From: Klebsiella pneumoniae | GTDB taxonomy: Bacteria; Pseudomonadota; Gammaproteobacteria; Ga0077536 | Direction of reading: 5' to 3' | Assembly: GCA_945862315.1 (NCBI GenBank) | Contig: CAMAXW010000005.1 | Span: forward strand, 17,890-81,889 | Length of the DNA: 64,000 nucleotides | Shown here: piece after piece, positions 3,778 through 53,917 of the stretch | How the letters are laid out: every line of letters starts with the position of its first letter | How positions within the stretch are numbered: position 1 is the stretch's first letter | Position numbers and translations under genes: made by a program | Notes under the pieces: model-generated | Told to the model about the DNA's origin: nothing | The model's database searches: none | Seen by the model: only the letters and a program-made list of their open reading frames with translations

Positions 3778-3852
3778 CTCGCCATAGTTCAACGGATAGA
3801 ACGGGGCCCTCCTAAGGCTCAGATGTAGGTTCGATTCCTACTGGCGAGGCCA
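3778..3852 (+). tRNA. tRNA-Arg (anticodon CCU)
   Basis: Cloverleaf folded by hand. The acceptor stem is CTCGCCA/TGGCGAG. The anticodon stem is GGGCC/GGCTC and the loop is CTCCTAA. The T-arm is GTAGG-TTCGATT-CCTAC. The discriminator is G, followed by CCA. Confidence 0.85.
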
Positions 3853-5977: not shown

Positions 5978-6054
<77 letters not shown>

Positions 6055-6578: not shown

Positions 6579-6752
6579 CGAAAGGCTGTCCAGATTGCCC
6601 TTGCCGCGAGGGGTTGCCCAGCGTGAGGAATGTCGACTGGTTCACAATTCAACCCTAGCCTGTAGAACGCAGTTGCCGTTCGTCGGACTGCCGCTACCGT
6701 CCGGCGGCTTTGCCCAAGCGTGGCGGCGACTCGATCGTTAATACTGCAATTC

Positions 6753-9021: not shown

Positions 9022-9027
9022 GCAACT

Positions 9028-9654
9028 ATGAACCCACAACATCCTTCCAAATTTAGTCCGCAGGCAGGGGTGGCGCTCATCATGGCGCTGGTGTTGCTGC
9101 TGGTCATGACCATGGTGGCTGTGGTGGCCATGCGCTCCACTACCCTAGATCTCAAAATGACCACCAACAATACGCAGACCCGACGCGCCTTTCAGGGCTC
9201 TGACGGCGCGCGGGACGTCATAACACCCGTGCTCGCATCGCACGTCTTCTACCACGGTTGGCCTACCTCGCTAACCGGTGGCACGGTGGCCGCCAGCGCG
9301 AGTTTCACCATTCCTCAGGGACTCACCGTGCGGAACGCGGCGCAGCGTTTGGACCTAGCGCAAAACGGGACGTACACGCGTTTCAGTGGCAGCCCCAATT
9401 CTGACCTCAGCTTCAAAGACGATGTGAATAGCAATGGCACGATGGACCCTGATGACGTGAACGCCGAATTGTGGGTCACCCGGATCGGCGCCTTGCCCGC
9501 GGCGGGCAGCAACATGGGTTCCAACGCGGCGGATCAGGGTGCGGGTGGGGGGGGCGCCAGCAAGTACATTTTGTTTGATTTACGCTCCGACGGTCGCGCC
9601 GTCGGCAACGCGCAAGCGCGCACCGGGGCCGATTACCGCGCGCTGATTCGTTGA
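9028..9654 (+). CDS. pilX: Type IV pilus assembly protein PilX
   Basis: The N-terminus reads MNPQHPSKFSPQAGVALIMALVLLLVMTMVAVVAMRSTTLDLKMTTN, typical of a PilX N-terminal domain. Confidence 0.7.
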   Translation: MNPQHPSKFSPQAGVALIMALVLLLVMTMVAVVAMRSTTLDLKMTTNNTQTRRAFQGSDGARDVITPVLASHVFYHGWPTSLTGGTVAASASFTIPQGLTVRNAAQRLDLAQNGTYTRFSGSPNSDLSFKDDVNSNGTMDPDDVNAELWVTRIGALPAAGSNMGSNAADQGAGGGGASKYILFDLRSDGRAVGNAQARTGADYRALIR

Positions 9655-9786: not shown

Positions 9787-12700
9787 ATGAAAATTAGCAA
9801 AACCTGCACGGGTTTTTTACACGGCCTAGCGCTGAGCATGGCCTTGCTGCCTGCGCTGTGGAGCGCCGGGGCACAGGCTGCGGCGTCTAATTTGTCGGGG
9901 CGATTGATGGCGCAATTCGTGGCCGCCCCCATTCTGACGGCGCAGTCCGTCCCACCGCTGGTGATGCTTTCCATGTCGCTAGACCACCAGTACTGGCAGA
10001 AGTCCTACAACGACTATACCGACCTCAACGGCGATGGCGTGGTCGAACGCAGCTATCTGGATAGCTTTGAGTACTACGGTTATTTTCACGCCGAGCGCTG
10101 CTACACCTATAGCGACACCAATAAGGTGTTCACCGCCGTAGGGGTTGCCGCGGGCACTAATAATCACTATTGCGAAGGTGCACTCAGTACGGCGTGGAGC
10201 GGCAATTTCCTCAACTGGGTCGCAATGGCCCGCATGGACGTCGTGCGTAAAATTCTGTACGGCGGCCAGCGCTCTACTGATACCGCCACCCAAACCATTC
10301 TCGAACGCACCTTCCTCCCCGGGGACGCCCATAGCTTTGCCAAGTATTACAACGGCGCGGACATCGCAAAGCTCACGCCGTATGACTCGCTAAGAACGGA
10401 CACCCTCAACGGTGGCAACAATAACGGCGTTGACAATAGCGACGAAGGCATTAGCTTCTGCAATATTTCTTTCGCGGCAAGCGGGAATTCGCAGACCTCC
10501 ACGGCACTGCCCTTGATGCGGGTGGCCAAGGGTAATTTCTCCTTGTGGAACGCCAACGAGCGGCGCCAATGCAGTTGGCAGGACGAGTTTGGCAACAATA
10601 GCGATAGCAATGTGTCCAGTGAGTCTGGCATTTTTGCCAGTGCCGGCGATCCCCCAGATGCCTCCGCCTTAAAAACGCCGAGCAGCAACCGCGACCACGT
10701 GGTGCGCGTAGAAGTTTGCGCAGCAACTTACTTTGACGAAAATCGCGACCTAGAGAACTGCGCAGACTACGGCGCAAACCGCAAACCCGAAGGCCTGTTG
10801 CAAACCTACGGGCTTACGGGGCTGATGCAGTTTGGCCTGCTGACCGGCAGCTATCAAAAAAACCTCTCCGGCGGCGCCCTACGCAAGCGCATTGCCACGC
10901 TGAACGATGAGATCAACACCACTGATGGGACTTTCAAAACCCTCTCAGCCTCCACGCCGGGCATCATTAAAACCCTCAACGCGGTGCGAATTTTCGGTTA
11001 TGGGTACACCAACGGCACGTATCTGTCTGGCGATGGCGGCGACGATTGCACCTTTCTACTGACCGACATTCGCACCGAGGGTGGCGGGCCGGGAGAAGGC
11101 AAATGCGCGAGTTGGGGCAATCCGATGTCGGAAATCTATCTCGAGGCCATCCGTTATTTTGCCTCAACCACGCGTGCGGCCACCAGCGCGTTTAACGCCG
11201 ACGACAGCACGTACATCACTAATTTGGCGCGCGATACCAACTGGGCAGCACCGCTCACGACCACCAATGCCTGCGCATCTCTGAGCACCATTGTGTTTAA
11301 TGCCAGCGTGTCTTCTTACGATGAAGACCAGACCAACCCCTCACCCTTGACCAGCAGCACCGCTGCAGCGCTCACGAAAACGGTGGGCGATGGCGAGGGC
11401 ATTACAGGCAACAACTATTTCATTGGTAGGAACGGCAGCCTTAGCGATGAATTTTGTACCGCCAAACCGCTCAGTGGGGCTAACGGCTTGGGCGACGCTT
11501 TAGGTCTGTGCCCGGAAGCCCCCACCTTGCGCGGCTCCTACCATATGGCAGGCCTAGCGCACTGGGCGCATACCAACGACATCTCCACGGCGCTCTCCGG
11601 GGTGCAAACAGTTCGAACTTTTGCCGTGGCACTGCAAACCGGCACACCCGTCATCCAAGTGCCCGTCACGGGCGGTGTGGTTAAGATTCTGCCCGCCTAC
11701 CGGCTACGGAAAGGTGGCAATAACACTAATGAATCAAGCAACGTCCCGGCCAACGATGGCGGCGGCACCCTGGTGGACTTCAAGGTAGTCCGCCCCCATA
11801 CAGAAGTTGTAAGCGCGTCCAATCTCACCGCCGCGACTAACACCGGTTTCTTTAATGCCAAGTTCTACGTCAACTGGGAAGACTCCGAACAGGGCGGGGA
11901 CTTTGACCAAGATATGTGGGGCACTATCGAGTATCTGGTTAATCAAAACGTAACACCGGCTACGGTCACCATCACCACCAAAGCGGTTGCCCAATCCACC
12001 ATCACCGGGCAGCTATTTGGTTTTGTGACCAACGGCACCACGCAAGATGGCTTCCACGCCTACTCGGGCATTCTAGGCGCCAACTACTACGCCAGCACCG
12101 GCTTCGATCCCTCCGGAGTGAAGGGTTGCAACAACTGCCGGGCACTCTCTGAGACGGGTGGCCAACAAGGAGCGCAGTCCTACACCTTCACGGTAAAAAC
12201 CGGCAGCAACGCGAACCTCCTAGAATCCCCGTTGTATTACGCCGCCAAGTGGGGCGGCTTTGAGGACTCCGACGCCAATAAAACCCCCAAAATCGCGGCG
12301 GCTCCCAGCGACACGCGAGAATGGGATGCTGATGGCGATGGCATTCCGGATACCTTTTTCTTTGTGAGCGACCCAGGTCTGCTGGAAGCCACCCTACGCA
12401 CGGTGTTTAACAGCATTCTGGAACGGGTGTCCTCCGGTACCGCAGCGGCCGTCGTGGCCAATGAGCAGAAGGGTAATGGCGCTATTTTTCAAGCGCTATA
12501 CGACCCGGAAAAAAAGGACGCTGATGGCAATACGGCGCGCTGGATAGGCACTTTGCAGGCCTTGTTTGTGGATTCCCATGGGCTTATTCGTGAAGACGGC
12601 AACGCGGATGGCAAGTTAGATGACTACGCCACTGATAAAGTACTGCGTTTGGAATTCGACGATGGCGCCAGCACCGCCGCCGAAGAACGCCGGACCAAAG

Positions 12701-14961
12701 CCGTTCGCTACACCCCGGTGACACCCAACGCTACCAACCCCGACACCACCGATTTGGCACAGTTCACACCCGAAGCGCCAATTGAACTCTCGGCAGTGAA
12801 CACCCTTTGGAATGCGCGTAAAAATCTCTCCGCGTTAAATAACACCAGCATCACCACGCAGCGCACCTACAGTGCCACCGCGGATACGGGGCGCTATATT
12901 TTTACGTGGTTGGATGGCAGTGGCACGAGCACGCCCAATAACTTAGTGGCTAGCGCAGAAGTAGTGCCTTTTGTTGCGAGCAGTATCACCGCCGCAAACT
13001 ACTACTGGCTGGACTATTTCAACACCTCCGACACCAGCGCCAACAAATACACCGGGGCGCGGCGACTGGTGGACTGGGTGCGTGGGAAAGAAAGCGTCTC
13101 AACCGAATTCCGTAGCCGGCTGTTGGACTACGATGGGCTGTCCGGCTCTGGTGGCGTGGCCGTCATGCGTCTGGGCGATATTATCAATTCCACCCCGGTC
13201 TCGGTGAGCGCGCCCTTCGCCAACTTTGACCAATCGGCACTGGATCCCTCTTATGCCACCTTCCGTGCCCTTTATAGCCAGCGCCGCCAAATGGTTTACG
13301 TGGGCTCCAACGATGGGATGATCCATGCGTTTAACGCCGGCTTCTACAATGCAGATGATCAACAATTTCAACTAGCACCCACGAGCGGCAGCACGCTCAC
13401 CCGTCACCCGCTCGGCAGCGAAATTTGGGCCTATGTGCCCAAGAACGCGCTACCTCATTTGCAGTGGATGGCGCGCCCCGATTACTCCCACGTTTACACC
13501 GTAGATTTACCGCTGCGGGTGTTTGACGTAAAAAGCTTCCCCGCCGATAGCACCCATCCCGGCGGCTGGGGCACGATATTAGTGGCTGGCATGCGTTTCG
13601 GCGGCGGTACCGACACCACCGGCATCTCAGTGGATGTGGGTGCCGATGGTGCGACCACCGCGAACGTCACCACCAAATCGGCCTATGTGGTGTTAGACAT
13701 CACCAATCCAGAAGTCGCGCCAACGCTGCTGGCCGAACTAAGCCCCACCAACTTGCAGTTCTCAACCTCCATTCCACAGGTGGCGGCGTTTGGCGACCCT
13801 TCCGGCACCACGGCCGGCAAGTGGTATTTGGTGTTCGGCTCAGGCCCTACCGATTTTGCCAACGCCCAGTACGCCTCCGGCAGCGGTAATACCAAAGCTC
13901 GGCTGTTTGTATACGACTTGGCCAATTTGGGGACGGCATCCAGTTTGGCGGCCTCGCCCGCCAACCTGAAATATCAGAATACCCCACCCGCAACCCAGAC
14001 CTTCGCGATGCCAGACAACAACGTCTTTGTCGGCGATCCCGTCAGCACGGATTTCGACATCGACATGAAGGACGAGGCAATTTATTTCGGCACGGTGGGG
14101 CCGCTGGTGGCGGCAGGCGCCACGCCGCCCAGCACCACAGGGACCCAGGGCAGCCTGTTCCGGATGTTGCTCAACGAGAACTCCAGTCCGGGCACTTGGA
14201 CCGGCCCCACGCGCCTGCTGTCCAATCTCAACCAGCCCTTTGTGGGACAACCAGCCGTCACCATCGACAGCAAAAACCGGCGGTGGGTGCTGGCCGCTAC
14301 CGGGCGGCTGTTCGTCAACGGCGACAAATCAACCCGCGACCAGCAGACCCTCTACGGCATTATTGACACCGCCTTTAGCGGATCGACCAAGCCGGCGGTT
14401 ATCAGCGATTTGGTGGATGTCTCGGCGGCCCAAGTATTCTCCAACGACACCGCGACCGGTGTGACACTGGCAACAGGTAGCGACACCGATGGTAACGGCG
14501 CCACCTCCACCTTGGAGCTGCGCAACGCGATAGCCACCGCGGGCGGCTGGCGCAAGAACTTGACCATCACCACCGCCAGCCCGGCGGAACGCAGCAGCAG
14601 CCGCCTCACGCTCTTCGGCGGCATTGTGTTTGGCTCCATGTTCACCCCCAGCACAGATCTATGTTCATCTGATGGCACTAGCCGCTTACTGGGCTTGGAC
14701 TTCACTACCGGCGCACCCCCGATACTAGGCGTCTTTGATTGTGCTAACTGCAACGACCCCACAGTGCCGCTGCCGGAAAGCCTGTCACAGGGCGGCGGCT
14801 ATTCCTCTAGCGCGAGCGTGCACTTTGGTGAGCAAACCATCGAAGGGCGGGTCACGGTAATTACCCAAGACTCGCGTGGTGAACTGGAGGCCAGTCAAGT
14901 CAACACGAGTAGCGGCAACCCGGCCAGCGAAATATCATGGCGGGAGTCCCGAGGTGACTAA
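9787..14961 (+). CDS. pilY1: Type IV pilus tip adhesin and biogenesis factor PilY1 (PilC family), unusually large at 1724 aa
   Basis: Signal peptide followed by a huge Thr/Ser/Gly/Asn-rich protein. The C-terminal PilY1 beta-propeller hallmark is ...VYVGSNDGMIHAFNAGFYN... The gene sits between pilX and pilE. Confidence 0.8.
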   Translation: MKISKTCTGFLHGLALSMALLPALWSAGAQAAASNLSGRLMAQFVAAPILTAQSVPPLVMLSMSLDHQYWQKSYNDYTDLNGDGVVERSYLDSFEYYGYFHAERCYTYSDTNKVFTAVGVAAGTNNHYCEGALSTAWSGNFLNWVAMARMDVVRKILYGGQRSTDTATQTILERTFLPGDAHSFAKYYNGADIAKLTPYDSLRTDTLNGGNNNGVDNSDEGISFCNISFAASGNSQTSTALPLMRVAKGNFSLWNANERRQCSWQDEFGNNSDSNVSSESGIFASAGDPPDASALKTPSSNRDHVVRVEVCAATYFDENRDLENCADYGANRKPEGLLQTYGLTGLMQFGLLTGSYQKNLSGGALRKRIATLNDEINTTDGTFKTLSASTPGIIKTLNAVRIFGYGYTNGTYLSGDGGDDCTFLLTDIRTEGGGPGEGKCASWGNPMSEIYLEAIRYFASTTRAATSAFNADDSTYITNLARDTNWAAPLTTTNACASLSTIVFNASVSSYDEDQTNPSPLTSSTAAALTKTVGDGEGITGNNYFIGRNGSLSDEFCTAKPLSGANGLGDALGLCPEAPTLRGSYHMAGLAHWAHTNDISTALSGVQTVRTFAVALQTGTPVIQVPVTGGVVKILPAYRLRKGGNNTNESSNVPANDGGGTLVDFKVVRPHTEVVSASNLTAATNTGFFNAKFYVNWEDSEQGGDFDQDMWGTIEYLVNQNVTPATVTITTKAVAQSTITGQLFGFVTNGTTQDGFHAYSGILGANYYASTGFDPSGVKGCNNCRALSETGGQQGAQSYTFTVKTGSNANLLESPLYYAAKWGGFEDSDANKTPKIAAAPSDTREWDADGDGIPDTFFFVSDPGLLEATLRTVFNSILERVSSGTAAAVVANEQKGNGAIFQALYDPEKKDADGNTARWIGTLQALFVDSHGLIREDGNADGKLDDYATDKVLRLEFDDGASTAAEERRTKAVRYTPVTPNATNPDTTDLAQFTPEAPIELSAVNTLWNARKNLSALNNTSITTQRTYSATADTGRYIFTWLDGSGTSTPNNLVASAEVVPFVASSITAANYYWLDYFNTSDTSANKYTGARRLVDWVRGKESVSTEFRSRLLDYDGLSGSGGVAVMRLGDIINSTPVSVSAPFANFDQSALDPSYATFRALYSQRRQMVYVGSNDGMIHAFNAGFYNADDQQFQLAPTSGSTLTRHPLGSEIWAYVPKNALPHLQWMARPDYSHVYTVDLPLRVFDVKSFPADSTHPGGWGTILVAGMRFGGGTDTTGISVDVGADGATTANVTTKSAYVVLDITNPEVAPTLLAELSPTNLQFSTSIPQVAAFGDPSGTTAGKWYLVFGSGPTDFANAQYASGSGNTKARLFVYDLANLGTASSLAASPANLKYQNTPPATQTFAMPDNNVFVGDPVSTDFDIDMKDEAIYFGTVGPLVAAGATPPSTTGTQGSLFRMLLNENSSPGTWTGPTRLLSNLNQPFVGQPAVTIDSKNRRWVLAATGRLFVNGDKSTRDQQTLYGIIDTAFSGSTKPAVISDLVDVSAAQVFSNDTATGVTLATGSDTDGNGATSTLELRNAIATAGGWRKNLTITTASPAERSSSRLTLFGGIVFGSMFTPSTDLCSSDGTSRLLGLDFTTGAPPILGVFDCANCNDPTVPLPESLSQGGGYSSSASVHFGEQTIEGRVTVITQDSRGELEASQVNTSSGNPASEISWRESRGD

Positions 14962-24447: not shown

Positions 24448-24524
24448 CGGGGTGTAGCTCAGTCTGGTAGAGCACTGCCTTCGGGAGGCAGGGGTCGCAG
24501 GTTCGAATCCTGTCACCCCGACCA
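24448..24524 (+). tRNA. tRNA-Pro (anticodon CGG)
   Basis: Sequence CGGGGTGTAGCTCAGTCTGGTAGAGCACTGCCTTCGGGAGGCAGGGGTCGCAGGTTCGAATCCTGTCACCCCGACCA. The anticodon loop is TTCGGGA. Confidence 0.85.
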
Positions 24525-45870: not shown

Positions 45871-45899
45871 TTGGAACTGGCAGGGCTGCGCTTTTATAC
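45871..45899 (+). promoter_or_regulatory. Candidate sigma-70 promoter (TTGGAA-N18-TATACT) upstream of DUF4124 gene 2 and the STK operon
   Basis: Read directly. It lies about 25 nt upstream of the ATG at 45924. Confidence 0.3.
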
Positions 45900-45923
45900 T
45901 GTCGACAGACTCTCGGAACAGGC

Positions 45924-46391
45924 GTGGCGCCGATGCGAATGGTTGGTCGTAACGACCTAAAAATAATGCTAGCGGCGCTGCTGTGGGCGGCATGGCTGCC
46001 CGCCCAAGCGGCCGAAATTTTTCGCTGGGTGGATGCCGATGGACAAGTGCATTTGGGTGATCGTCCCGCAAACCCAACCGCGCAAAAGTTAATCGTCCCA
46101 AGCAGCACCCCCCACCCGAGTCAGCCTCCAGATGCCGGGCGCACACAACGCCTGCTGGAGGAATATGCCGCGGCCCGGGCCGAGCACAAAGCCACCCGCG
46201 CCACTGCGGCCAAAGCCGCAGCCGAGCGCGAACAAGCCTGTTTGGCGGCTAAAAATCGTGCCTTAGAGACGGATCAAGCCGCCTACCTCTATGAGCGGGA
46301 CGCACAAGGGCAAAAGCGAATTTTGAGCGACCAAGAACGCCAAATGGCGCACACTGAAAGCCGTGCCGAAGTAACCCGCTGGTGCGACTAA
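45924..46391 (+). CDS. DUF4124-domain periplasmic protein (paralog 2)
   Basis: Signal peptide followed by EIFRWVDADGQVHLGDRP, a DUF4124 signature. The C-terminus has a Cys pair. Confidence 0.6.
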   Translation: MAPMRMVGRNDLKIMLAALLWAAWLPAQAAEIFRWVDADGQVHLGDRPANPTAQKLIVPSSTPHPSQPPDAGRTQRLLEEYAAARAEHKATRATAAKAAAEREQACLAAKNRALETDQAAYLYERDAQGQKRILSDQERQMAHTESRAEVTRWCD

Positions 46392-46473
46392 CGCCGCGCG
46401 TCGCACCCTAGTCGCTAGAAATTAGCCAAGGTAATATGGTCCCAAAATAGCCTCCAGTAAGGGAGCCAGGTCG

Positions 46474-49035
46474 ATGCAGGGATCTTTTTGGAAATCCGAC
46501 CGTTTCTTCGGTGCACTGATCTCGATCGGTCTCATCGCTGCGTGGTTGCTAAACCTGCCGATGCTGGAGCGCCTCGAAGGCGACGCCTACGACCTTGGGG
46601 TTCGGCTGTCCTCCCGTGAGGCCAGCGCCCGAAAGGATCAAATTGTGATCGTGGCAATCGACGATCAAAGCATTCAAAGCATCGGGCGGTGGCCGTGGCC
46701 GCGCGACGTGCACGCCAGTCTGATCAAAAAACTGACTGAAGCCGGCGCTAAAACCATCGCCTCAACGGTGTTCTACTCAGAACCGCAGGTCGACCCGGGT
46801 CTAAAATGGCTGCAACAACTGCGCGACCAACTTGCTGGTGCGGTGGTCAACGGTGCCAAAGGCGACCCCCAACAAACGCTCGACGCGGCCTTGGCAGCAC
46901 TGGACACAGATGCCATTTTAGGGCGAACCCTCCATGAAACCGGCAACACGGTCTTGGGGATGCAGTTCGAACCCGGTGAAGTGCTGGGCAACCCCGACGC
47001 GCCACTGCCGGCGTTTGTCACCCGCTTTGCTATTCCAACTGAAAATATCAGCGACCCCGCCGGGACCAATGAAGAATTCCCGATCACCACCGTCAAGGCA
47101 GCCCCGCCCGTGGCGCTAGTGGGCGATTCCGCAGCCGGACTAGGCGCGCTCATCAACCCGCTCGACAACGACGGCACGCTGCGCCGTGAACCCCTCGCGG
47201 TGCGTTATTACGACCAGTACTTCCCCTCGCTGTCGTTGGCCACCGCGGCGCGCAGCCTCAATTTAGGGGTCAAAGACATCCGCGTTCAGCGCGGCGATTC
47301 GGTACAACTGGGTGGGCTGTCCATCAAGACCGATGCAGCCTCGCTGATGAACACGTTTTACTACGGTGAGCACGACGGACGCGCGCCGTTCCCTGTTTAT
47401 TCCTTCTACAACGTCATCCAAGGCGAAATCGCCATGGACAGCTTCAAGGGTAAAATTGTGCTGGTGGGGGCGACGGCCTTTGGCGTCGGTTCGGATCTCC
47501 GCACGCCGCTGGGCGAGGCCAAAGGTCCCGTGCTGATTTTGGCACACCAAATCGCGAGCATTTTGAACCAGCATTTCTTTGTGCAGCCGAACTGGGCTTT
47601 TGGCGTCGAACTGCTGGCCATCCTGCTCGTGGCCGCCTACCTCATCGCACTGCTGCCGTTGCTTAAGGCCGGCGCCGGCGCGCTGACCAGCGCGGGCATT
47701 TTGCTGGCGCTACTGGCAACAGAACTCGGCGTCATGATCGGCACCGCCAACTGGATCCGCCTCGCCACTGCCGCGGCCCTGCTGGTCGTCGGCCATCTGC
47801 TGCTCACGACCAAACGCTATCTAGCGACGGAACGTGGTGCGCTCGACAGCGATATAAAAGCCGCCCTGTCTAACCGCCAACTGGCGCTGCAATTCCAGCA
47901 AAAAGGTGAACTCGACAACGCCTTCGAATACTTCCGTCGCTGCCCGGTCGATGAACAGGTTTTAGAGTCCTTGTATGCCTTAGCTACTGACTTTCAGGTT
48001 AAACGTAAACCCGAGAAATCCATGCTCGTCTACGAGTACATGCACGCTAAGAACCCTAAGTTTCGCGACATCCAGTCCAAAATCAATCAAGCCCGCCACC
48101 AAATGGAAACCCAGGCGCTCTATCCTAGCGGTCGACCGTTGGGCGCCGGCGGGGCTGCGCAAACGGCCGTACTGGCGGGGACGGGCGGCGCTAGCCAAAC
48201 CATGCTGGGTCGCTACGCGGTGGAACGCGAACTCGGTAAGGGCGCGATGGGGGTTGTTTATCTGGGTAAAGACCCCAAGATCAACCGGGTGGTGGCGATC
48301 AAAACCATGGCGCTGTCCCAAGAATTTGAAGCGGATGAACTGGAAGAGGTGAAAGCGCGCTTCTTCCGCGAAGCCGAAACCGCTGGACGCCTCCAGCATC
48401 CCAATATCGTGACCATTTACGATGCGGGCGAAGAACACGACCTCGCGTACATCGCGATGGAGTTTCTGGAAGGTCACGACCTCTCTCGTTACACCAAATT
48501 GGACACCCTGCTACCGTTGTCGGTGGTGCTGGGCATTATCTTCAAATCGGCCCTGGCGCTGGATTATGCCCACAAGGCCAATGTGGTCCATCGCGACATC
48601 AAGCCCGCCAACATCATGTTTGAGCCCACCAAAAAAACCGTGAAAATCACTGACTTTGGCATCGCTCGTATCACTGACTCCAGCAGAACCAAAACCGGCA
48701 TGGTGCTCGGCACTCCCTCCTACATGTCGCCCGAGCAGCTCTCGGGTAAAAAAGTGGATGGCCGCTCTGATTTATTTTCACTCGGGGTGATGCTGTACCA
48801 AATGGTCATTGGCAAGCTGCCTTTCCAAGGTGAGTCGATGGCCACGCTGATGTACAAAATCGCCAACGAACCCCATAAGGAACTCGCCGAACTCAAACCC
48901 GAACTGGCGGCGCAGCGGCCCTGTCTATCGGAAATCATCAACCGGTCGTTGCAGAAAGATGTCAACGCGCGGTACCAAACCGGCGCCGACATGGCCCGAG
49001 ATCTCCAAAACTGCGCCAAGCAGGTCACCGGCTAA
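46474..49035 (+). CDS. CHASE2-sensor Ser/Thr protein kinase (Hanks type)
   Basis: The N-terminal CHASE2 region reads ...IVIVAIDDQSIQSIGRWPWPRDVHASLI... A transmembrane block follows. The C-terminal kinase has an intact Gly-loop (LGKGAMGVVY), VAIK, HRDIKPANI and DFG. Confidence 0.85.
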   Translation: MQGSFWKSDRFFGALISIGLIAAWLLNLPMLERLEGDAYDLGVRLSSREASARKDQIVIVAIDDQSIQSIGRWPWPRDVHASLIKKLTEAGAKTIASTVFYSEPQVDPGLKWLQQLRDQLAGAVVNGAKGDPQQTLDAALAALDTDAILGRTLHETGNTVLGMQFEPGEVLGNPDAPLPAFVTRFAIPTENISDPAGTNEEFPITTVKAAPPVALVGDSAAGLGALINPLDNDGTLRREPLAVRYYDQYFPSLSLATAARSLNLGVKDIRVQRGDSVQLGGLSIKTDAASLMNTFYYGEHDGRAPFPVYSFYNVIQGEIAMDSFKGKIVLVGATAFGVGSDLRTPLGEAKGPVLILAHQIASILNQHFFVQPNWAFGVELLAILLVAAYLIALLPLLKAGAGALTSAGILLALLATELGVMIGTANWIRLATAAALLVVGHLLLTTKRYLATERGALDSDIKAALSNRQLALQFQQKGELDNAFEYFRRCPVDEQVLESLYALATDFQVKRKPEKSMLVYEYMHAKNPKFRDIQSKINQARHQMETQALYPSGRPLGAGGAAQTAVLAGTGGASQTMLGRYAVERELGKGAMGVVYLGKDPKINRVVAIKTMALSQEFEADELEEVKARFFREAETAGRLQHPNIVTIYDAGEEHDLAYIAMEFLEGHDLSRYTKLDTLLPLSVVLGIIFKSALALDYAHKANVVHRDIKPANIMFEPTKKTVKITDFGIARITDSSRTKTGMVLGTPSYMSPEQLSGKKVDGRSDLFSLGVMLYQMVIGKLPFQGESMATLMYKIANEPHKELAELKPELAAQRPCLSEIINRSLQKDVNARYQTGADMARDLQNCAKQVTG

Positions 49036-49050
49036 AGCCGGCACCTGACC

Positions 49051-49881
49051 ATGCTAAGCAGTAACGTGGAGTTCGCTATCGTCTCTGACCCCGGCCTCAA
49101 ACGCACGCATAACGAAGACAGTGCCCTCACCGACCGGAGCTTAGGGCTAGCGCTAATTGCCGATGGCATGGGGGGCTACAAATCGGGTGAAGTAGCCAGC
49201 GCGATTGCTGCCCAGTGCGTGCTGGAGGGGATTCGTGAAAACCACAACAAGCACCACTTCGTGCGCGGCACCGACGAGCAAAAAACATCCCAAGAAGGGC
49301 TGCTGATTCGCAAAGTCATATGTGCGGCTAATCAACGTATTTTTCGCACCGCGCATGCGTTGCCGCAGTGTCATGGAATGGGTACGACGATTGTCGCGGC
49401 GTTGTTTAGTGAGAACCACGTGACGCTGGCCCACGTGGGTGACTCGCGCATCTATCGGTTTCGTAATAACCAAATGTCACAGGTCACTAACGACCATTCC
49501 CTGCTGCAAGAACTCATCGACAGAGGCTTCTACACGCCGGAGGACGCGCGGGCCAACACGCCCAAAAACCTTGTCACACGAGCGCTGGGAATAGACGAAC
49601 AAGTAGCAGTAGAAGTGACGGAACACGCGACAGAAGAGGGGGACATCTTCCTGCTCTGTTCGGATGGCTTGAATGATATGGTGGAAGATGAAGAAATTAG
49701 TTTAACCCTCGGGAAATATAGTGCTAATCTTCTGACGTGCGCAAAAGAACTAGTCCGCCTCGCCAACCAAAATGGCGGTAAAGACAACGTATCTGTCGTG
49801 CTCGCTCGACCACGCGCACCCACTAACGAAGGTGTAAGTCTTCTCGCCAGACTCAAAAAGCTCTTGTTTAGAGCCAGCTGA
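49051..49881 (+). CDS. PP2C-family Ser/Thr phosphatase
   Basis: Carries the ADGMGG, LCSDGL and GGKDNVSVVL motifs. Confidence 0.85.
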   Translation: MLSSNVEFAIVSDPGLKRTHNEDSALTDRSLGLALIADGMGGYKSGEVASAIAAQCVLEGIRENHNKHHFVRGTDEQKTSQEGLLIRKVICAANQRIFRTAHALPQCHGMGTTIVAALFSENHVTLAHVGDSRIYRFRNNQMSQVTNDHSLLQELIDRGFYTPEDARANTPKNLVTRALGIDEQVAVEVTEHATEEGDIFLLCSDGLNDMVEDEEISLTLGKYSANLLTCAKELVRLANQNGGKDNVSVVLARPRAPTNEGVSLLARLKKLLFRAS

Positions 49882-49890
49882 CAGGAAACG

Positions 49891-50607
49891 ATGATGGGCA
49901 AACTCGTACTCAGCTTGAATGGCGTCGTGCACGGAGAGTTCCAGCTCAAAAAAGAGCGCATGACGGTGGGTCGTAAACCCGACAACGAGTTACAAATCGA
50001 TAACCTCGCGGTCAGCGGCAAACACGCCCTCATCATCACCATTCTCGACGACTCCTTCCTCGAAGACCTCGGCAGCACCAACGGGACTTACGTCAACGGG
50101 AAGCTCATCAAAAAGCATGCGTTGCGTGATGGCGACATCATTGGCATTGGCAAACACGAGCTCAAGTACGTCAACGAGCATGCCACTGCGGATGACGAAG
50201 AATTCGAAAAAACCATGATTATTCGACCCGGCTCGGCCAGCGCTGCCGTGGCCGCCGCCCGGTCTGTCGACAACGCGCCAACCGCCGCGCCGGCACCGGC
50301 ACCAGCCCCGACGGGGTTTGGTGGTGGTCTTCCCTTAGGCAAAATTAAAGTGCTGAACGGACCCATTGCTGGCAAGCAACTAGAACTCACCAAGGCGCTG
50401 ATCACGCTCGGCAAACCTAACGTGCAGGTGGCCGTTATCTCCCGCCGCCCACAGGGATATTTCTTGACCCACATCGAGGGTGACGGCAAAAACATGAATT
50501 TCCCGATCGTCAACGGACGGACGATGGGTGCGCAGGCCTACGCGTTGAAAACCGGGGATATCATCGAACTGGCGGGCGTTAAGATGGAATTCTCAATCAT
50601 TCGCTAA
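49891..50607 (+). CDS. FHA-domain protein with an N-terminal FHA domain and a second FHA-like C-terminal half
   Basis: Sequence ...TVGRKPDNELQIDNLAVSGKHALI...TNGTYVNGKLI... A second, similar beta-rich half sits in the C-terminus. Confidence 0.75.
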   Translation: MMGKLVLSLNGVVHGEFQLKKERMTVGRKPDNELQIDNLAVSGKHALIITILDDSFLEDLGSTNGTYVNGKLIKKHALRDGDIIGIGKHELKYVNEHATADDEEFEKTMIIRPGSASAAVAAARSVDNAPTAAPAPAPAPTGFGGGLPLGKIKVLNGPIAGKQLELTKALITLGKPNVQVAVISRRPQGYFLTHIEGDGKNMNFPIVNGRTMGAQAYALKTGDIIELAGVKMEFSIIR

Positions 50608-50636
50608 GCCGCTAGCAGTTCGCTGCAGCCGGCCAT

Positions 50637-52886
50637 CTACTCCGACAGCAGCGAATGAACGCCATCCCAGCCTACGGGGGGTGGGGAGCGCCGAAACTGC
50701 CGGATGCGTTCGATATAGACCTTGTAGAGCGCGGGCGAGCGCGAGGTCCTGGCCAAATTCACAAAACTCACCTCCGCCACATCCCACGCGCTCGTCCGAT
50801 ACAAACGCAGCGCTTCGCGGTGAAGTTTTAATTCGTCTTTCCATTTAGCGTCCAACTCGTCACGCCGACCGATGGGTTCATAAATGGGCATGGGTAGCGG
50901 GTGACCCGCCACCAACACGAGATCAATCTCACGATAAGCGTACTCCGGCATTGCGTCGCGCGTGTGCTCTCCAAGCAAAATCTCCACGCCGTAACGCTGT
51001 GTCAGCGCCTCCAAACGCATGCCTAGATCGGCTGCCGTGCCCAGCACGGTGTACGTCCTGCGGAATTCCGAACCCAGATTACCCACAGTCATCGTGTCGG
51101 TATTGATGCCAATGCCCACTTGCAGCGTTGGCCACCCGCGGGCCGCAAATTGCTGATTCAGCGTCGCGAGCTGCGAACGCATCGCGAGCCCGGCGCGTAG
51201 CGCGTTCAGGGCATGGTCTGAGGCTGGCAGCGGTGCGCCCCAAAACGCCATGACGGCAGGCCCTAGATATTTGTCGATGGTGCCGCGGTGCTCATGAATG
51301 GCACGTGTCATGGGGGTCAAAAACTGGTTGAGAAAATCTGCGAGCTCTTGGGGTGATAGCCCTGCGGTGAGCGCCGCAAACCCCCGCACCCGCAAAAACA
51401 AAATACTCATCTCGCAGCGGGTGGGTGCTAGCGAGTAGGCCGTGGGCTGCAGCGCCATTTCAGCCACCAGTTCCGGCGGCAGGTAGAGCCCAAACAGGCT
51501 GGACAACTGGCGCTTGCCGCGCGTCTCAATAAAGTAGCCATACGACATATTGAGCATAAACAGGACGCTCAACAGGATTAAACCGCCCGCCAGTGGCAGC
51601 ACTAAATTTCCCGCCACCCAGACCACAAGATTCAAGCCCAAATAAGCGGCCAGCAGCGCGAGCGTTAGGCCGGTGGCCAACAGTGGTGTTAGCAGAGGCG
51701 CTGCGACAGCCAGCACCACACCAAACAACAAAAGTAGCAGGCCTTCAGCGGCCAGCGTGTAGGCGGGCAGTTGCTTGATCGTGCCATCCAGAATGCCCGC
51801 GATGAGGTTGGCGTGGACTTCAACGCCGGGATAGGCCTCACCCACCGGCGTTGCGCGCAGATCCAACAAGCCCGGGGCCGTAGTGCCCACCAGCACTACG
51901 GCGTTTTTTAACAACTGTTTATCGACCTTACCGTTGAGCACATCGGTGGCCGAGAGATAGGTAAAACTACCGCGATAGCCACGATAAGGCACCAGCGCCT
52001 GAACACTACGGTCCACCGGCACCGCCGCGCGCCCGATGGTCAACCACTCAAGCCCCGGATAACCCCGGCCGCCGAACAACGGCTCCCCAAACCCCGGCGT
52101 GACCGTTTGTTTATCGCCCAGTATCTGGCGCGCCATTTCCAGCGACAGCGAGGCGTAATAGGCGCCCTCATAATTAATCAACATGGGAACCCGCCGCACC
52201 ATGCCGTCCGGATCGGGTTGCGGATTGAAATGGCCGCCGCCGTGCGCACTCGCCTGCAGCGCTGGCAAATTACCGCCGTAGCCATTGGCCTGCCGAAAGC
52301 CAATGTTCTTGCCCGTAAAAGTGCCTTTAACGAAGGTAGGTTGAGGCAGCGCGCCACTGCGCGTGGCAACCGCCGGGGCTGCCGCGAAATTGAAGTAATA
52401 CCCCAGCACCACCGGGTAGTGCGCAATCGCCTCGGCAAACTGCCGGTCGTAGTTCAGCCGGGGACGCACTTTTTCTAGCGCCTGCCTAAAACCAACGTCC
52501 CCCCGTAGTTCATTGTTGGCGAGTGCGTCCAAGACCTCCAAACCCGAACTGTTATCCGGCTCCGCAAACACGATATCGAAACCGAGTAGACCAATCTGGT
52601 ACTCATCAAAAAGGCGCCGCACGAGCACCGCCAGCTTATCGCGGCTCCACGGCCAGCGACCTTCAGCGGCGAGGCTTTTTTCGTCGATGTCGACAATCAG
52701 GATGCGGGGATCTGGGCGCTTGGGCATCGTGAGCAACAAGCGCTGGTCGTAGGCGAGGTTATCGAGTTGGTCGATCACTCCCAGGTGCAGCCAATCCGCC
52801 GCGTGGGCAACAAAGAGCAGCACCACCAACAGGCCTAACCCAATTTGAATTTTGGCTGCGTCCGCCCGCTTGAGCAGATTTCTCAT
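50637..52886 (-). CDS. CHASE2-sensor protein with a C-terminal class III nucleotidyl cyclase homology domain. The metal-binding Asp residues appear substituted, so it may be a pseudo-cyclase.
   Basis: The CHASE2 region reads ...ILIVDIDEKSLAAEGRWPWSRDKLAVLV... The cyclase homology region reads SILFLRVRGFAALT ... TIDKYLGPAVMAFWGAP ... FRRTYTVLGTAADLGMRLE. Confidence 0.7.
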   Translation of the reverse strand: MRNLLKRADAAKIQIGLGLLVVLLFVAHAADWLHLGVIDQLDNLAYDQRLLLTMPKRPDPRILIVDIDEKSLAAEGRWPWSRDKLAVLVRRLFDEYQIGLLGFDIVFAEPDNSSGLEVLDALANNELRGDVGFRQALEKVRPRLNYDRQFAEAIAHYPVVLGYYFNFAAAPAVATRSGALPQPTFVKGTFTGKNIGFRQANGYGGNLPALQASAHGGGHFNPQPDPDGMVRRVPMLINYEGAYYASLSLEMARQILGDKQTVTPGFGEPLFGGRGYPGLEWLTIGRAAVPVDRSVQALVPYRGYRGSFTYLSATDVLNGKVDKQLLKNAVVLVGTTAPGLLDLRATPVGEAYPGVEVHANLIAGILDGTIKQLPAYTLAAEGLLLLLFGVVLAVAAPLLTPLLATGLTLALLAAYLGLNLVVWVAGNLVLPLAGGLILLSVLFMLNMSYGYFIETRGKRQLSSLFGLYLPPELVAEMALQPTAYSLAPTRCEMSILFLRVRGFAALTAGLSPQELADFLNQFLTPMTRAIHEHRGTIDKYLGPAVMAFWGAPLPASDHALNALRAGLAMRSQLATLNQQFAARGWPTLQVGIGINTDTMTVGNLGSEFRRTYTVLGTAADLGMRLEALTQRYGVEILLGEHTRDAMPEYAYREIDLVLVAGHPLPMPIYEPIGRRDELDAKWKDELKLHREALRLYRTSAWDVAEVSFVNLARTSRSPALYKVYIERIRQFRRSPPPVGWDGVHSLLSE

Positions 52887-52967
52887 GCTGTCCCCACGAC
52901 GGCTTGGCCGTCTTAATCTTAACGTCGCTACCTGCTAGGCGAGCTACCAACCCCAGTCAGCCGTGTT

Positions 52968-53288
52968 TCAGTTGCGAGGTGGCGGGGTCGCATGAATCGA
53001 AAAAACTTTATCCAGTCGCGCGAGGGTCAACACACTCATGACGGGTTCGCTGACGGCGATGAGGAAGAATTGCAAACCCTTCTTTTTGGCCGCCTGAAAA
53101 CCTTCCACCAAACCGGCGATGCCCGAGCTGTCGATATAGCTCACCTGCGCCAGATTAACGCACGTATGCTGGCCCAAACGGAGCTGATCGAGGATGGTCT
53201 TGCGCACCGCAGGCGCACACGAGAGGTCGATTTCGCCCTCCAGATGCACCACGGCAAACCCACCTTCCATTATGACTTTGGCGGACAT
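52968..53288 (-). CDS. STAS-domain anti-sigma factor antagonist
   Basis: 106 aa. It contains the putative phospho-acceptor Ser in the stretch ...VSYIDSSGIAGLVEG... Confidence 0.8.
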   Translation of the reverse strand: MSAKVIMEGGFAVVHLEGEIDLSCAPAVRKTILDQLRLGQHTCVNLAQVSYIDSSGIAGLVEGFQAAKKKGLQFFLIAVSEPVMSVLTLARLDKVFSIHATPPPRN

Positions 53289-53325
53289 TTCTCGACTCCC
53301 AGTGCCCGCGCAGGCGTGCGGCAGG

Positions 53326-53745
53326 CTACCACTCGCGTTGCGTGCTGATTGGTTTACTCATCTGTAAAAAATTGCCCGCGCCCTCGGGCAGGTTGCCATA
53401 TTCATATCGTTCCATCACCGCGCGGATGAAGTGCGTGCCCAGTCCGCCGGGGCGCAGTTCGGCGAGCCGCCGGGGTCGGATGTTCGGCACCACCACCGGG
53501 GGCGCGAAATCCGTCACGCGGACCTCGAGATCGCCGCCCACCTGTTTCATCTCGAGCACTATTTCCCCAGAGGCATCACCCAAGTAGGCATGCTGCATCA
53601 CGTTTGCGCAGGCCTCATTGACCGCTAGTACCACCTCGGACACCCATTGCGTGCCGCAGCCTAAGCTGGCCATGGCGGCCCGTACACAACGCCGCATATC
53701 GCAGAGTTTGTCCGGATCGGCAGCAAAGCGCAGTTCTAGCAACAC
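53326..53745 (-). CDS. RsbW/BtrW-like anti-sigma regulatory Ser kinase (HATPase_c)
   Basis: Sequence ...VVLAVNEACANVMQHAY...GEIVLEMKQVGGDLEVRVTDF...GGLGTHFI... The start is a GTG. Confidence 0.75.
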   Translation of the reverse strand: MLLELRFAADPDKLCDMRRCVRAAMASLGCGTQWVSEVVLAVNEACANVMQHAYLGDASGEIVLEMKQVGGDLEVRVTDFAPPVVVPNIRPRRLAELRPGGLGTHFIRAVMERYEYGNLPEGAGNFLQMSKPISTQREW

Positions 53746-53917
53746 GCTGCCACCACAAGTTCAAGGCCGAACGCGCCCGCAGGGTTCAAACGCCAAGCGG
53801 CCAGGTTGCGCGTGGTGTACATCACTGGCCTACGCATCGTTAATCGGCCCTAAAAGATAAACGCTGGCCGCGCTCAGCGCCAGCGCGATAGACGCGGGGT
53901 CAGCGAGGCTGGCGCAC

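Follow-up and report, generated by a model that had tools for sequence, protein, structure and literature searches.

Gene content and organization of the locus

The seven genes described here lie in two convergent operons within a 64 kb window of an uncultured gammaproteobacterium, the whole stretch of DNA that was analyzed (Table 1). The original prediction had been made from the sequence and its open reading frames alone; its seven genes and their domain assignments agree with Pfam at these positions, and gene calling carried out independently on six metagenome contigs gave the same seven genes. A broad clade of Gammaproteobacteria has a signaling island at this place, between mutS-fdxA and nth-DUF1841. 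Two CHASE2 genes had been described as head-on and 30 bp apart. The operons do converge tail to tail with 29 bp between the stop codons, but the CHASE2 genes themselves are farther apart, the kinase gene stopping 1.6 kb short of the junction. The CHASE2 domains of the two proteins share 30% identity and are paralogues. No intrinsic-terminator-like site was found in the 29-bp gap, and its local fold is not unusual (z = -1.35). A terminator-like hairpin is located at 53881-53860 on the minus strand, just after DUF1841 and within the intergenic region upstream of the RsbW-like gene, and a promoter-like site is present at 45871-45900, near the DUF4124 gene.

Table 1. Features of the signaling island, with positions in the 64 kb window
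Feature	Position	Strand	Basis
DUF4124 protein	45924..46391	+	Pfam PF13511, 43 bits
CHASE2 + Hanks-type Ser/Thr kinase, 853 aa	46474..49035	+	Pfam CHASE2 166 bits, Pkinase 187 bits
PP2C phosphatase, Stp1/IreP type	49051..49881	+	NCBIfam NF033484; Pfam PP2C_2 63.6 bits
FHA adaptor	49891..50607	+	Pfam FHA 75.9 bits, residues 25-87
Convergent gap, 29 bp, FHA stop to cyclase stop	50608..50636	.	Sequence
CHASE2 + degenerate class III cyclase, 749 aa	50637..52886	-	Pfam CHASE2 207 bits, Guanylate_cyc 44.7 bits
Spacer between STAS and cyclase, 81 bp; MlaE/MlaF/MlaD/auxiliary-lipoprotein genes here in most relatives	52887..52967	-	L088 and L143 gene order
Single-domain STAS protein (anti-sigma-antagonist/MlaB-like)	52968..53288	-	Pfam STAS 59.5 bits
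RsbW/SpoIIAB-like GHKL serine kinase, 139 aa	53326..53745	-	Pfam HATPase_c_2 88.9 bits
Intergenic region, 172 bp, upstream of the RsbW-like gene	53746..53917	-	GAF-SpoIIE gene here in 58/62 evaluable relatives

The DUF4124 protein (152 aa from the gene callers) starts with a signal-peptide-like segment and is a lineage-restricted neighbor of the kinase operon. Its identity to relatives is just 38-44%, it is missing from the related locus L087, and the betaproteobacterial loci gave no detected match. This weak conservation offers no support for the suggestion that it acts as a ligand or co-sensor.

Conservation of the kinase, phosphatase and FHA adaptor with the CHASE2 cyclase

The kinase is predicted to be active on the basis of the GxGxxG, VAIK, HRD, DFG and SPE motifs, all of which are present in its translation. 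Its kinase domain is 81-92% identical among gammaproteobacterial relatives, and the CHASE2-kinase architecture is preserved in 59 of 63 loci. The PP2C gene starts 15 bp past the kinase stop, and its product contains the DGMGG, GDSR, SDGL and DN motifs. With 245 bits against the Stp1/IreP equivalog NF033484 (cut-off 230) and just 25.5 bits against the Pfam SpoIIE model, it scores as a Stp1/IreP-type kinase partner and not as an RsbU type. This assignment, together with the occurrence of the phosphatase in Betaproteobacteria that lack STAS and RsbW at the locus, speaks against it as the obvious candidate for the RsbU-like partner of the opposite operon.

No other protein of the island is as well conserved as the FHA adaptor, which shows 74-87% identity in the compared gammaproteobacterial loci and 70-83% to the listed database homologs (best 98%). 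It had been called a dual FHA protein, a description that holds in part. The N-terminal domain is a canonical FHA domain with GR, SxxH and NG in place, and an Ala/Pro-rich linker joins it to a C-terminal domain that is FHA-like but lacks the GR and SxxH phosphothreonine-binding residues. Pfam gave no match for this C-terminal part. It aligned with the protein's own N-terminal FHA domain (hhalign E=1.4e-3), is all-beta in the AF2 model (pLDDT 67-92), and the Foldseek matches of the adaptor model were all FHA domains.

These three genes and the cyclase, which we refer to as module 1, recur together far beyond chance in divergent genomes: of 80 genome loci anchored on the cyclase, 50 had FHA and PP2C genes no more than 6 kb away from it, 47 of these 50 being co-directional (mostly Betaproteobacteria) and three convergent. 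In Betaproteobacteria, the kinase, PP2C, FHA and cyclase genes form one tight co-directional operon that usually continues with a phosphodiesterase-like gene of the cAMP type and then two GAF-domain effectors. The Chitinimonas viridis operon, for instance, has intergenic gaps of 6-20 bp and proceeds to PDEase_II-like, GAF-T2SSE and GAF-HD-GYP genes. Module 1 is thus a deeply conserved unit of Beta- and Gammaproteobacteria. Because the kinase set is linked with the cyclase across both classes, the idea that these genes work as one unit across the convergent junction is well founded. The RsbW/STAS pair is absent from all betaproteobacterial operons and from L087, a 66%-identical relative.

Loss of catalytic residues in the CHASE2 cyclase

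Catalytic positions of the cyclase were mapped against the solved cyclases CyaB (3r5g) and 6fht and against orthologs. The earlier designation as a pseudo-cyclase is correct: R499 and P543 replace the metal-binding aspartates and D620 replaces the catalytic asparagine. All 98 other orthologs examined have D, D, N, R and K at the catalytic positions, and the R, P and D states are limited among the orthologs examined to the window lineage, where they are fixed in 11 of 11 full-length members of the cluster of at least 90% identity. The sole other degenerate member is P0002, a 78%-identical relative with Q and A at the two metal positions. The cyclase domain is the fastest-evolving part of the protein in the window lineage and the slowest in active orthologs. 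Between the window protein and P0002, the CHASE2 domain is 85% identical and the cyclase domain 64%, whereas in pairs of active cyclases the cyclase domain (74-91%) exceeds CHASE2 (62-82%). Within the species cluster, the density of variable sites is 17% in the cyclase domain versus 9% in CHASE2, and in the catalytic region the window protein is 55% identical to the outgroup L088, compared with 72-77% in its sister lineages. By these comparisons the cyclase domain is under relaxed constraint and the sensor and membrane part is conserved. The protein has therefore most likely been retained non-catalytically, as a CHASE2 receptor or scaffold for the intact kinase, PP2C and FHA set.

Origin of the RsbW-like kinase and STAS pair

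The sole PDB match of the RsbW-like kinase is Bacillus subtilis RsbW. Its N-box (NEAC.N..QHAY) and PGGLGT box are invariant in orthologs, and it falls short of the NCBIfam RsbW equivalog cut-offs. The STAS protein keeps a phosphorylatable DSSG motif that is likewise invariant among orthologs. It scores 70.3 bits against the NCBIfam anti-sigma-factor-antagonist superfamily (cut-off 53.45) versus 27.7 bits against the MlaB model (cut-off 90), and its best solved matches are TM1442, SpoIIAA and RsbV, the MlaB match being weaker. The pair evolves just modestly faster than control genes. Both genes are intact, and their products probably still act as kinase and substrate.

Among RsbW-anchored metagenome loci, STAS lies downstream of RsbW in 69/69, a GAF-SpoIIE phosphatase directly upstream of RsbW in 58/62 evaluable loci, and MlaE next after STAS in 43/54. 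The GAF-SpoIIE protein was identified by Pfam in L033 and is also present in L088. Genes for MlaE, MlaF, MlaD and a lipoprotein usually follow STAS in the relatives, and in L088 the STAS stop overlaps the annotated MlaE start. The loci without GAF-SpoIIE include L089-L091, the closest relatives of the window. The lineages form a graded series, in which L088 and L143 have the full set, L033 and L123 lack the Mla genes, the window, L007 and L089-L091 lack both the Mla genes and the phosphatase, and L087 has nothing. Gene order identifies the RsbW/STAS pair as the surviving part of a GAF-SpoIIE/RsbW/STAS/MlaE-MlaF-MlaD-lipoprotein operon, hereafter module 2. The phosphatase and transporter context in relatives argues against the idea that the pair is a dedicated regulator of the cyclase. 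The statement that the minus operon has no PP2C of its own extends to the whole 64 kb window, in which no second PP2C, GAF-SpoIIE remnant or second cyclase was found and tblastn detected no Mla remnants.

Interpretation of the locus

We favor, with reasonable though not high confidence, the view that the locus represents a larger two-module gammaproteobacterial signaling island in a reduced form specific to this lineage. In the likely ancestral logic of module 1, a mechanism that we infer, a periplasmic cue would reach the CHASE2 domains, the kinase would phosphorylate threonine on itself, the adaptor or the cyclase, the FHA adaptor would read the phosphothreonine and tune cyclase output, and the PP2C would reset the module. 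In the full module 2 operon, STAS would probably serve an MCE-type ABC transporter as an MlaB-like subunit regulated by phosphorylation. Phosphatase and transporter genes appear to have been deleted in the window lineage, which would have made the cyclase the gene downstream of STAS, and the phosphatase and target of the RsbW/STAS pair are not encoded in the locus. An intact pair without both fits a new role as well as a remnant, and the orphaned STAS protein may engage in cross-talk with the PP2C of module 1. All of these functional links are read from gene order, and parsimony and identity ranking suggest that GAF-SpoIIE and Mla were lost here, not gained in the relatives. As the view covers 64 kb of genome, the missing genes may have moved instead of being lost, and as the gammaproteobacterial loci share housekeeping flanks, the adjacency of the modules there may reflect common descent and not selection.

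Given two ancestral modules and a PP2C of the Stp1/IreP type, the single integrated circuit of the original prediction is just partly supported: the kinase, PP2C and FHA genes are linked to the cyclase, but RsbW/STAS has its own GAF-SpoIIE and Mla context. Its full form, in which all seven genes act as one circuit, the PP2C having replaced the lost GAF-SpoIIE on phosphorylated STAS and RsbW/STAS controlling the pseudo-cyclase, is in our judgment unlikely. It gains from the intact RsbW and STAS reading frames and invariant motifs in the window, L007 and L089-L091, all without GAF-SpoIIE, since some phosphatase must then act on phosphorylated STAS, and the Stp1-type enzyme is the sole PP2C in the 64 kb. 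The P0002 contig is recorded with the same gene order as these loci, and RsbW, STAS and cyclase have their own upstream terminator-like boundary and could be a single transcript. In 25 of 27 loci where the sequence was long enough, FHA and PP2C are also next to the partner-switch operon, and they are so in L143 although both CHASE2 proteins, kinase and cyclase, are missing, an arrangement that a purely two-module view does not explain; the same synteny is, however, seen for housekeeping neighbors. Against the circuit, the PP2C barely reaches the SpoIIE model and is conserved with the kinase where STAS and RsbW are absent, relatives encode a dedicated phosphatase, fuller loci couple STAS translationally to MlaE and not to the cyclase, and L087 has the cyclase and kinase set without the pair.

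It is more doubtful still that RsbW/STAS, and perhaps the cyclase too, are functionless leftovers heading for deletion. The phosphatase and presumed target genes are gone, the related lineage L087 has wholly lost the pair, and in comparison with the outgroup L088, STAS is 10-15 and RsbW 7-9 identity points lower in phosphatase-less than in sister lineages, against 0-6 points for control genes. However, no frameshifts or stops were found, the recovered metagenome contigs encode proteins of 99-100% identity, four lineages share unchanged DSSG, N-box and GGLG motifs, and the CHASE2 and membrane part of the cyclase is well conserved, as the comparison with P0002 illustrates. Least probable, and by a wide measure improbable, is that the degenerate cyclase retains cAMP signaling by forming a heterodimer with an active cyclase whose gene lies elsewhere, itself being the C2-like partner that does not bind metal. 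In class III cyclases, the substrate-specifying and transition-state residues come from the subunit opposite the metal-binding one, and the window protein keeps Lys539 and Thr613 (substrate-specifying) and Arg624 (transition-state). The catalytic asparagine expected from the same subunit is nevertheless lost, the relaxed constraint extends over the whole cyclase domain, the window holds no partner cyclase, and all 98 orthologs look like self-sufficient homodimer types.

Comparison with known signaling systems

Neither module was found described in the published literature searched. The reduced two-module island has counterparts for several of its parts. Module 1 has the same three components as the Hanks kinase/PP2C/FHA triads of Mycobacterium tuberculosis (PknB-PstP-FhaA/FhaB) and Pseudomonas aeruginosa (PpkA-PppA-Fha1, the threonine phosphorylation pathway of the T6SS), in the window as a tight operon, and likewise combines a kinase with all catalytic motifs, an Stp1/IreP-type PP2C and an FHA domain with canonical phosphothreonine-binding residues. 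Unlike these triads, it has CHASE2 as its sensor in place of PASTA or a T6SS accessory, T6SS and cell-wall genes are missing from its surroundings (TagH model 40, cut-off 120), a CHASE2 cyclase is conserved as a fourth component, and the adaptor has a second, degenerate FHA-like domain.

The RsbW/STAS pair resembles the partner-switching modules RsbU/RsbV/RsbW and SpoIIE/SpoIIAA/SpoIIAB of B. subtilis in that a DSSG-containing STAS protein adjoins a small GHKL serine kinase, to which relatives of the window add a SpoIIE-type PP2C. Versions that do not act on sigma factors include the Synechocystis icfG cluster, Bordetella BtrUVW and Vibrio fischeri SypE/SypA. The window differs in lacking a SpoIIE-type phosphatase or adjacent sigma factor, in the order kinase then STAS, in the Mla/MCE-type ABC transporter downstream in relatives, and in a kinase whose scores stay under the RsbW equivalog thresholds. 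In L088 and L143 the genes immediately after the orthologous STAS gene encode MlaE, MlaF and MlaD homologs, an arrangement that recalls Escherichia coli MlaFEDB with its STAS subunit MlaB, to which the window protein has weak but detectable similarity; the window, however, has no Mla genes, and its STAS protein matches the anti-sigma antagonists much better. We know of no kinase or phosphatase for E. coli MlaB. Phosphoregulation of MlaB has been described as an open question (PMC7367683).

The window cyclase shares its architecture of CHASE2 ectodomain, membrane helices and class III cyclase with CyaD1, CyaD2 and CyaK of Sinorhizobium meliloti, the sole CHASE2 cyclases for which a signal route has been described (PMC13001267). 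The enzymes of S. meliloti are active; the outer-membrane protein NsrA mediates their activation and Clr reads their output, whereas the window protein has lost its catalytic residues and has a Hanks kinase, PP2C and FHA protein as conserved partners. Finally, structures of Bdellovibrio DgcB, a solved example of a nucleotide cyclase protein whose FHA domain binds a phosphorylated peptide, were among the Foldseek matches of the adaptor model. DgcB is a single soluble FHA-GGDEF protein making c-di-GMP, whereas the window encodes its FHA adaptor separately from the cyclase, which is a membrane receptor of class III.

Organization of the convergent locus

Pfam assignments for the open reading frames agreed with the seven gene labels of the original prediction, and the same genes were called on six independent metagenome contigs bearing an identical cyclase. 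Downstream of the kinase gene, the plus-strand genes are separated by gaps of only 9-15 bp, with 15 bp between the kinase and PP2C genes, and the FHA stop lies 29 bp from the cyclase stop. A consensus scan of this 29-bp convergent gap found no terminator, and its local fold is ordinary (z = -1.35). The strongest terminator-like element of the region is a plus-strand hairpin at 51877-51902 (10-bp stem with seven GC pairs, followed by GTTTTTT), which is located within the cyclase coding sequence, antisense to the cyclase and about 1.3 kb past the FHA stop. This hairpin might act as a stop for read-through from the plus operon.

Genes of the convergent locus in window coordinates
Gene product	Position	Strand	Assignment
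DUF4124	45924-46391	+	Pfam
CHASE2 + protein kinase	46474-49035	+	Pfam
PP2C	49051-49881	+	Pfam
FHA	49891-50607	+	Pfam
CHASE2 + class III cyclase	50637-52886	-	Pfam
STAS	52968-53288	-	Pfam
RsbW-like HATPase_c_2 protein	53326-53745	-	Pfam

The locus comes from an uncultured gammaproteobacterium and was present on contigs from several metagenome samples. Housekeeping genes flank it, with mutS and fdxA on one side and DUF1841, nth, rnfB, and metG on the other. In the window, tblastn searches identified neither further copies of the PP2C, STAS, RsbW, and cyclase genes nor any GAF-SpoIIE, phosphodiesterase, GAF-ATPase, GAF-HD-GYP, or Mla gene. The DUF4124 protein had been suggested as a co-sensor, and a search for its conservation returned nothing in support of this role. 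The parts of the locus are all of known kinds, namely a Hanks triad, a partner-switch pair, CHASE2 receptors, and a class III cyclase, and the greater novelty is in the conserved modules described below than in the window feature itself.

The kinase, PP2C, and FHA adaptor

The plus operon harbors a Hanks kinase/PP2C/FHA triad. The kinase domain (Pfam Pkinase, 187 bits) reads LGKGAMG, VAIK, HRDIKPAN, DFG, and SPE in translation, matching the Gly-rich loop, VAIK lysine, HRD, DFG, and APE-like motif of Hanks-type Ser/Thr kinases. The adjoining gene encodes an Stp1/PstP-type PP2C that scores 245 bits against the 230-bit cut-off of the Stp1/IreP equivalog model (NCBIfam NF033484) and barely reaches the SpoIIE model (25.5 bits). 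In the FHA protein, a canonical N-terminal FHA domain (Pfam FHA, 75.9 bits) provides the phosphothreonine-binding residues GR, SxxH, and NG, and its motifs VGRK, SGKH, and TNGT are invariant across 32 orthologues. Both the kinase and the cyclase have the layout of CHASE2 receptors, in which a helix precedes the ectodomain and a membrane bundle follows it, visible as hydrophobic segments in the translations. Their CHASE2 domains score 166 and 207 bits in Pfam, respectively, and share 30% identity.

The C-terminal 90 residues of the FHA protein, previously taken as a second FHA domain, have no Pfam match other than a 13-bit partial FHA hit. Profile alignment of this region to the N-terminal FHA (hhalign) gave E=1.4e-3 with 33% identity over 70 columns. 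In the AF2 model, the region forms a confident all-beta domain, and the best Foldseek matches of the whole model are all FHA domains, a result that is silent on the matching part, the N-terminal FHA being modeled poorly (pLDDT 30-50) and the C-terminal domain well. Taking the profile alignment, the model, and the Foldseek matches jointly, we consider the C-terminal domain to be FHA-like. However, it lacks the phosphothreonine-binding GR and SxxH, and therefore the "dual FHA" description, correct for one canonical domain, is better read as an FHA plus a degenerate FHA-like domain.

The threonine phosphorylation pathway of type VI secretion (T6SS) was rejected as a home for these genes, with the FHA protein scoring 40.2 against a TagH cut-off of 120.25 and the neighborhood harboring no T6SS core genes. 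Anti-phage defense was likewise set aside, as PADLOC returned only generic matches to the kinase domain (PD-T4-6, mad6) and the cyclase domain (PycC), with no defense-specific family among them. Additionally, many genomes share the synteny of the locus, with housekeeping genes on either side, which counts against a defense-island context.

Degeneration of the cyclase active site

The CHASE2 cyclase has the fold of class III cyclases (Pfam Guanylate_cyc, 44.7 bits; PDB 6fht, 1.7e-31; CyaB 3r5g, 1.9e-29). Alignment to CyaB 3r5g and 6fht places R499 and P543 at the metal-binding aspartate positions and D620 at the catalytic asparagine position, with Lys539, Thr613, and the transition-state Arg624 retained. 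Unlike an active class III cyclase, the protein thus lacks both metal aspartates and has only the arginine of the transition-state Asn-Arg pair. Its orthologues, about 748 residues long, make up a large family, and the catalytic positions are canonical in 98 others recovered from genomes and metagenomes. Degenerate members are limited to the window species and P0002, a 78%-identical relative whose metal positions are occupied by Q and A. Within the cluster of at least 90% identity, the R499/P543/D620 states are fixed in 11 of 11 full-length members, and the predicted pseudo-cyclase is borne out by the difference between these residues and the canonical state of the 98 orthologues.

The pattern of conservation has also changed. 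Active orthologues conserve the cyclase domain most strongly, at 74-91% identity compared to 62-82% in the CHASE2 ectodomain, whereas the degenerate lineage shows the reverse, with 64% for the cyclase domain and 85% for CHASE2. Variable sites within the species cluster are nearly twice as dense in the cyclase domain (17% against 9%), and identity of the catalytic region to the outgroup is 55% in the window compared to 72-77% in sister lineages. The replaced catalytic residues and the reversed conservation therefore indicate that catalysis was most likely lost recently. The same comparison shows a sensor half that has been maintained, with the catalytic domain under relaxed or altered constraint. 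A receptor cyclase turned pseudo-enzyme with its sensor still constrained would be a clear natural case that separates catalytic from scaffolding roles.

A conserved kinase/PP2C/FHA/cyclase unit

In order to examine the neighborhood of the cyclase, one genome per species was searched with the cyclase-orthologue alignment as query, which yielded 80 loci, mostly from Betaproteobacteria. In 50 of these loci, FHA and PP2C homologues were found no more than 6 kb away from the cyclase. Among the others, four are cut by contig ends and only 10 with ample flanks lack FHA and PP2C. The order kinase > PP2C > FHA > cyclase on a single strand was seen in 47 loci, and the CHASE2 part of the kinase is kept in 59 of 63. 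The gene-neighborhood comparison shows the linkage of these four genes to be conserved.

The Chitinimonas viridis locus L057 illustrates the betaproteobacterial arrangement with a seven-gene co-directional operon (L057:5747-16973) in which gaps of 6-20 bp separate CHASE2-kinase > PP2C > FHA > CHASE2-cyclase > MBL > GAF-T2SSE ATPase > GAF-HD-GYP, the MBL being a metallo-beta-lactamase resembling class II cAMP phosphodiesterases. Matches to the MBL, GAF-T2SSE, and GAF-HD-GYP genes follow the cyclase in most linked loci, and the L057 gene order is common to most of the betaproteobacterial loci L009-L086. This operon apparently ties a secretion/pilus-type ATPase to threonine phosphorylation and to the turnover of cAMP and c-di-GMP. 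In the gammaproteobacterial relatives L007, L033, L037, L087, and L088, the kinase, PP2C, and FHA genes run toward the cyclase from the opposite strand, the same convergent arrangement as that of the window.

The window leads to a conserved unit in which a kinase and a phosphatase are joined by an FHA adaptor and a cyclase and that is seemingly undescribed, neither the unit nor the seven-gene operon having a description in the full-text literature searched, with subscription journals outside it. To our knowledge, most CHASE2 receptors have no known ligand or downstream route, and little is documented on how bacterial Hanks kinases connect to cyclic-nucleotide signaling.

Origin of the RsbW/STAS pair

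The STAS protein scores 70.3 bits against the ant_ant_sig cut-off of 53.45 (NCBIfam) and keeps the serine of its DSSG motif, which aligns with the SpoIIAA motif. Its best matches among solved structures are TM1442, SpoIIAA, and RsbV, and its similarity to MlaB is weak (27.7 against a model cut-off of 90). The RsbW-like protein (Pfam HATPase_c_2, 88.9 bits) has B. subtilis RsbW as its sole PDB match, with a conserved N-box and GGLG box and a G1 box that reads DFAPP, and scores 40 against RsbW/SpoIIAB equivalog cut-offs of 145-155. Compared to an RsbU/V/W partner switch, the pair is incomplete. No SpoIIE/RsbU-type PP2C of its own was found within the 64 kb window, and neither a sigma factor nor an identified output adjoins it, the pseudo-cyclase lying downstream and DUF1841 upstream. 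The MlaE, MlaF, and MlaD genes of an MlaFEDB-type transporter with a STAS subunit are likewise absent from the window.

Fuller versions were identified by an RsbW-anchored metagenome scan of 80 loci from a broad gammaproteobacterial clade, all in an nth-DUF1841 ... fdxA-mutS frame. RsbW is directly preceded by a GAF-SpoIIE phosphatase gene in 58 of 62 evaluable loci and has STAS next to it downstream in 69 of 69. The gene after STAS is MlaE in 43 of 54 evaluable loci, and fuller loci continue with MlaF, MlaD, and an ABC_trans_aux lipoprotein. The operon GAF-SpoIIE > RsbW-like kinase > STAS > MlaE > MlaF > MlaD > ABC_trans_aux lipoprotein is seen at L088:3426-9026, where the annotated start of MlaE and the stop of STAS overlap, and in equally compact form at L143:8700-13981, and many further GAF-SpoIIE/RsbW/STAS/Mla loci occur among L092-L168. 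Between DUF1841 and the cyclase, L088 holds the full operon, as does L143, which has no cyclase. The transporter is lost in L033 and L123, and both transporter and phosphatase are lost in the window, L007, the P0002 contig, and the closest relatives of the window, L089-L091. In L087, the RsbW/STAS pair is lost too.

These comparisons show the pair to be most likely derived from the GAF-SpoIIE/Mla operon, and the cyclase sits directly downstream of it because the intervening genes were deleted. The proposal that the junction joins functionally related genes is supported at least for the kinase, PP2C, FHA, and cyclase, and RsbW and STAS are of different origin. The striking "nexus" of the original prediction arose largely through deletions, which placed unrelated modules side by side, and the window calls for caution in its reading.

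In the fuller relatives, the best reading of STAS is an MlaB-like subunit under phospho-regulation. Phospho-regulation of E. coli MlaB has been raised as an open question in structural work on MlaFB (PMC7367683). With a kinase and a phosphatase flanking an MlaB-like STAS beside MlaE/MlaF/MlaD, the operon of these relatives is a natural candidate for phospho-regulation of an Mla-type lipid transporter, which it would open to direct testing. No description of a partner switch coupled to Mla genes was found in the full-text literature searched, which lay outside subscription journals.

The pair after loss of its phosphatase

RsbW and STAS are intact, with invariant motifs, in lineages without GAF-SpoIIE, and therefore some phosphatase must still serve the pair. 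This could be the neighboring Stp1-type PP2C, the RsbU-like partner originally envisaged, or one encoded elsewhere. Identity to the outgroup was compared for window 52968-53745 and loci L007, L089, L091, L121, L123, and L140. STAS and RsbW were 7-15 identity points further from the outgroup in the GAF-SpoIIE-less lineages than in sisters keeping the phosphatase, a modest acceleration considering that control genes differed by 0-6 points. This suggests that constraint on the pair may have altered after phosphatase loss.

Association with the Stp1-type PP2C extends to loci without the CHASE2 kinase and cyclase. In L143, FHA and PP2C genes persist beside the partner-switch/Mla operon in convergent orientation (L143:14014-15574), with the same persistence in L142, L145, L151, and L158, and FHA is present in 25 of 27 loci with enough sequence. 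Either real cross-talk or inherited synteny may account for this, the latter because conservation of the housekeeping flanks is just as high.

Proposed mechanism

On the basis of these features, a periplasmic cue would act on the CHASE2 domains, and the kinase would write phosphothreonine marks to be read by the FHA adaptor and erased by the PP2C. In relatives, this phosphorylation circuit would tune cAMP output, and in the window species the cyclase protein would act as a non-catalytic co-receptor or scaffold. RsbW would phosphorylate STAS at the DSSG serine, the STAS partner probably being no longer encoded locally.

A wider reading joins both modules, although we consider it unlikely that all of its parts hold together. 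The CHASE2-kinase/PP2C/FHA/CHASE2-cyclase unit would be a widespread, undescribed pathway with a receptor adenylate cyclase gated by Hanks threonine phosphorylation. Readers of the cyclic nucleotide would be the co-operonic GAF-ATPase and GAF-HD-GYP in Betaproteobacteria and the GAF of the SpoIIE phosphatase in Gammaproteobacteria, where the phosphatase and RsbW would set the phosphorylation of the MlaB-like STAS and so switch an MCE-type lipid transporter. The window would have lost the GAF-SpoIIE receiver and Mla output first, with cyclase catalysis decaying next. The GAF domain of these SpoIIE phosphatases has only part of a cNMP-binding NKFDE-type motif. This domain could in principle read the cyclase product, as the betaproteobacterial GAF effectors may, a step beyond what the motifs indicate. 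If the wider reading is true, nature would have dissected the pathway in the window organism, which keeps the sensor, kinase, adaptor, and RsbW/STAS, possibly rewired via the Stp1-type PP2C.

Other features of the window

Three tRNA genes are present (Arg-CCT, 3778-3852; Thr-CGT, 5978-6053; Pro-CGG, 24448-24524), and no other Rfam family reached its gathering score in the window. Next to open reading frames at 6720-9654, the plus strand at 9787-14961 also carries a 1724-aa open reading frame with a PilY1 beta-propeller domain.
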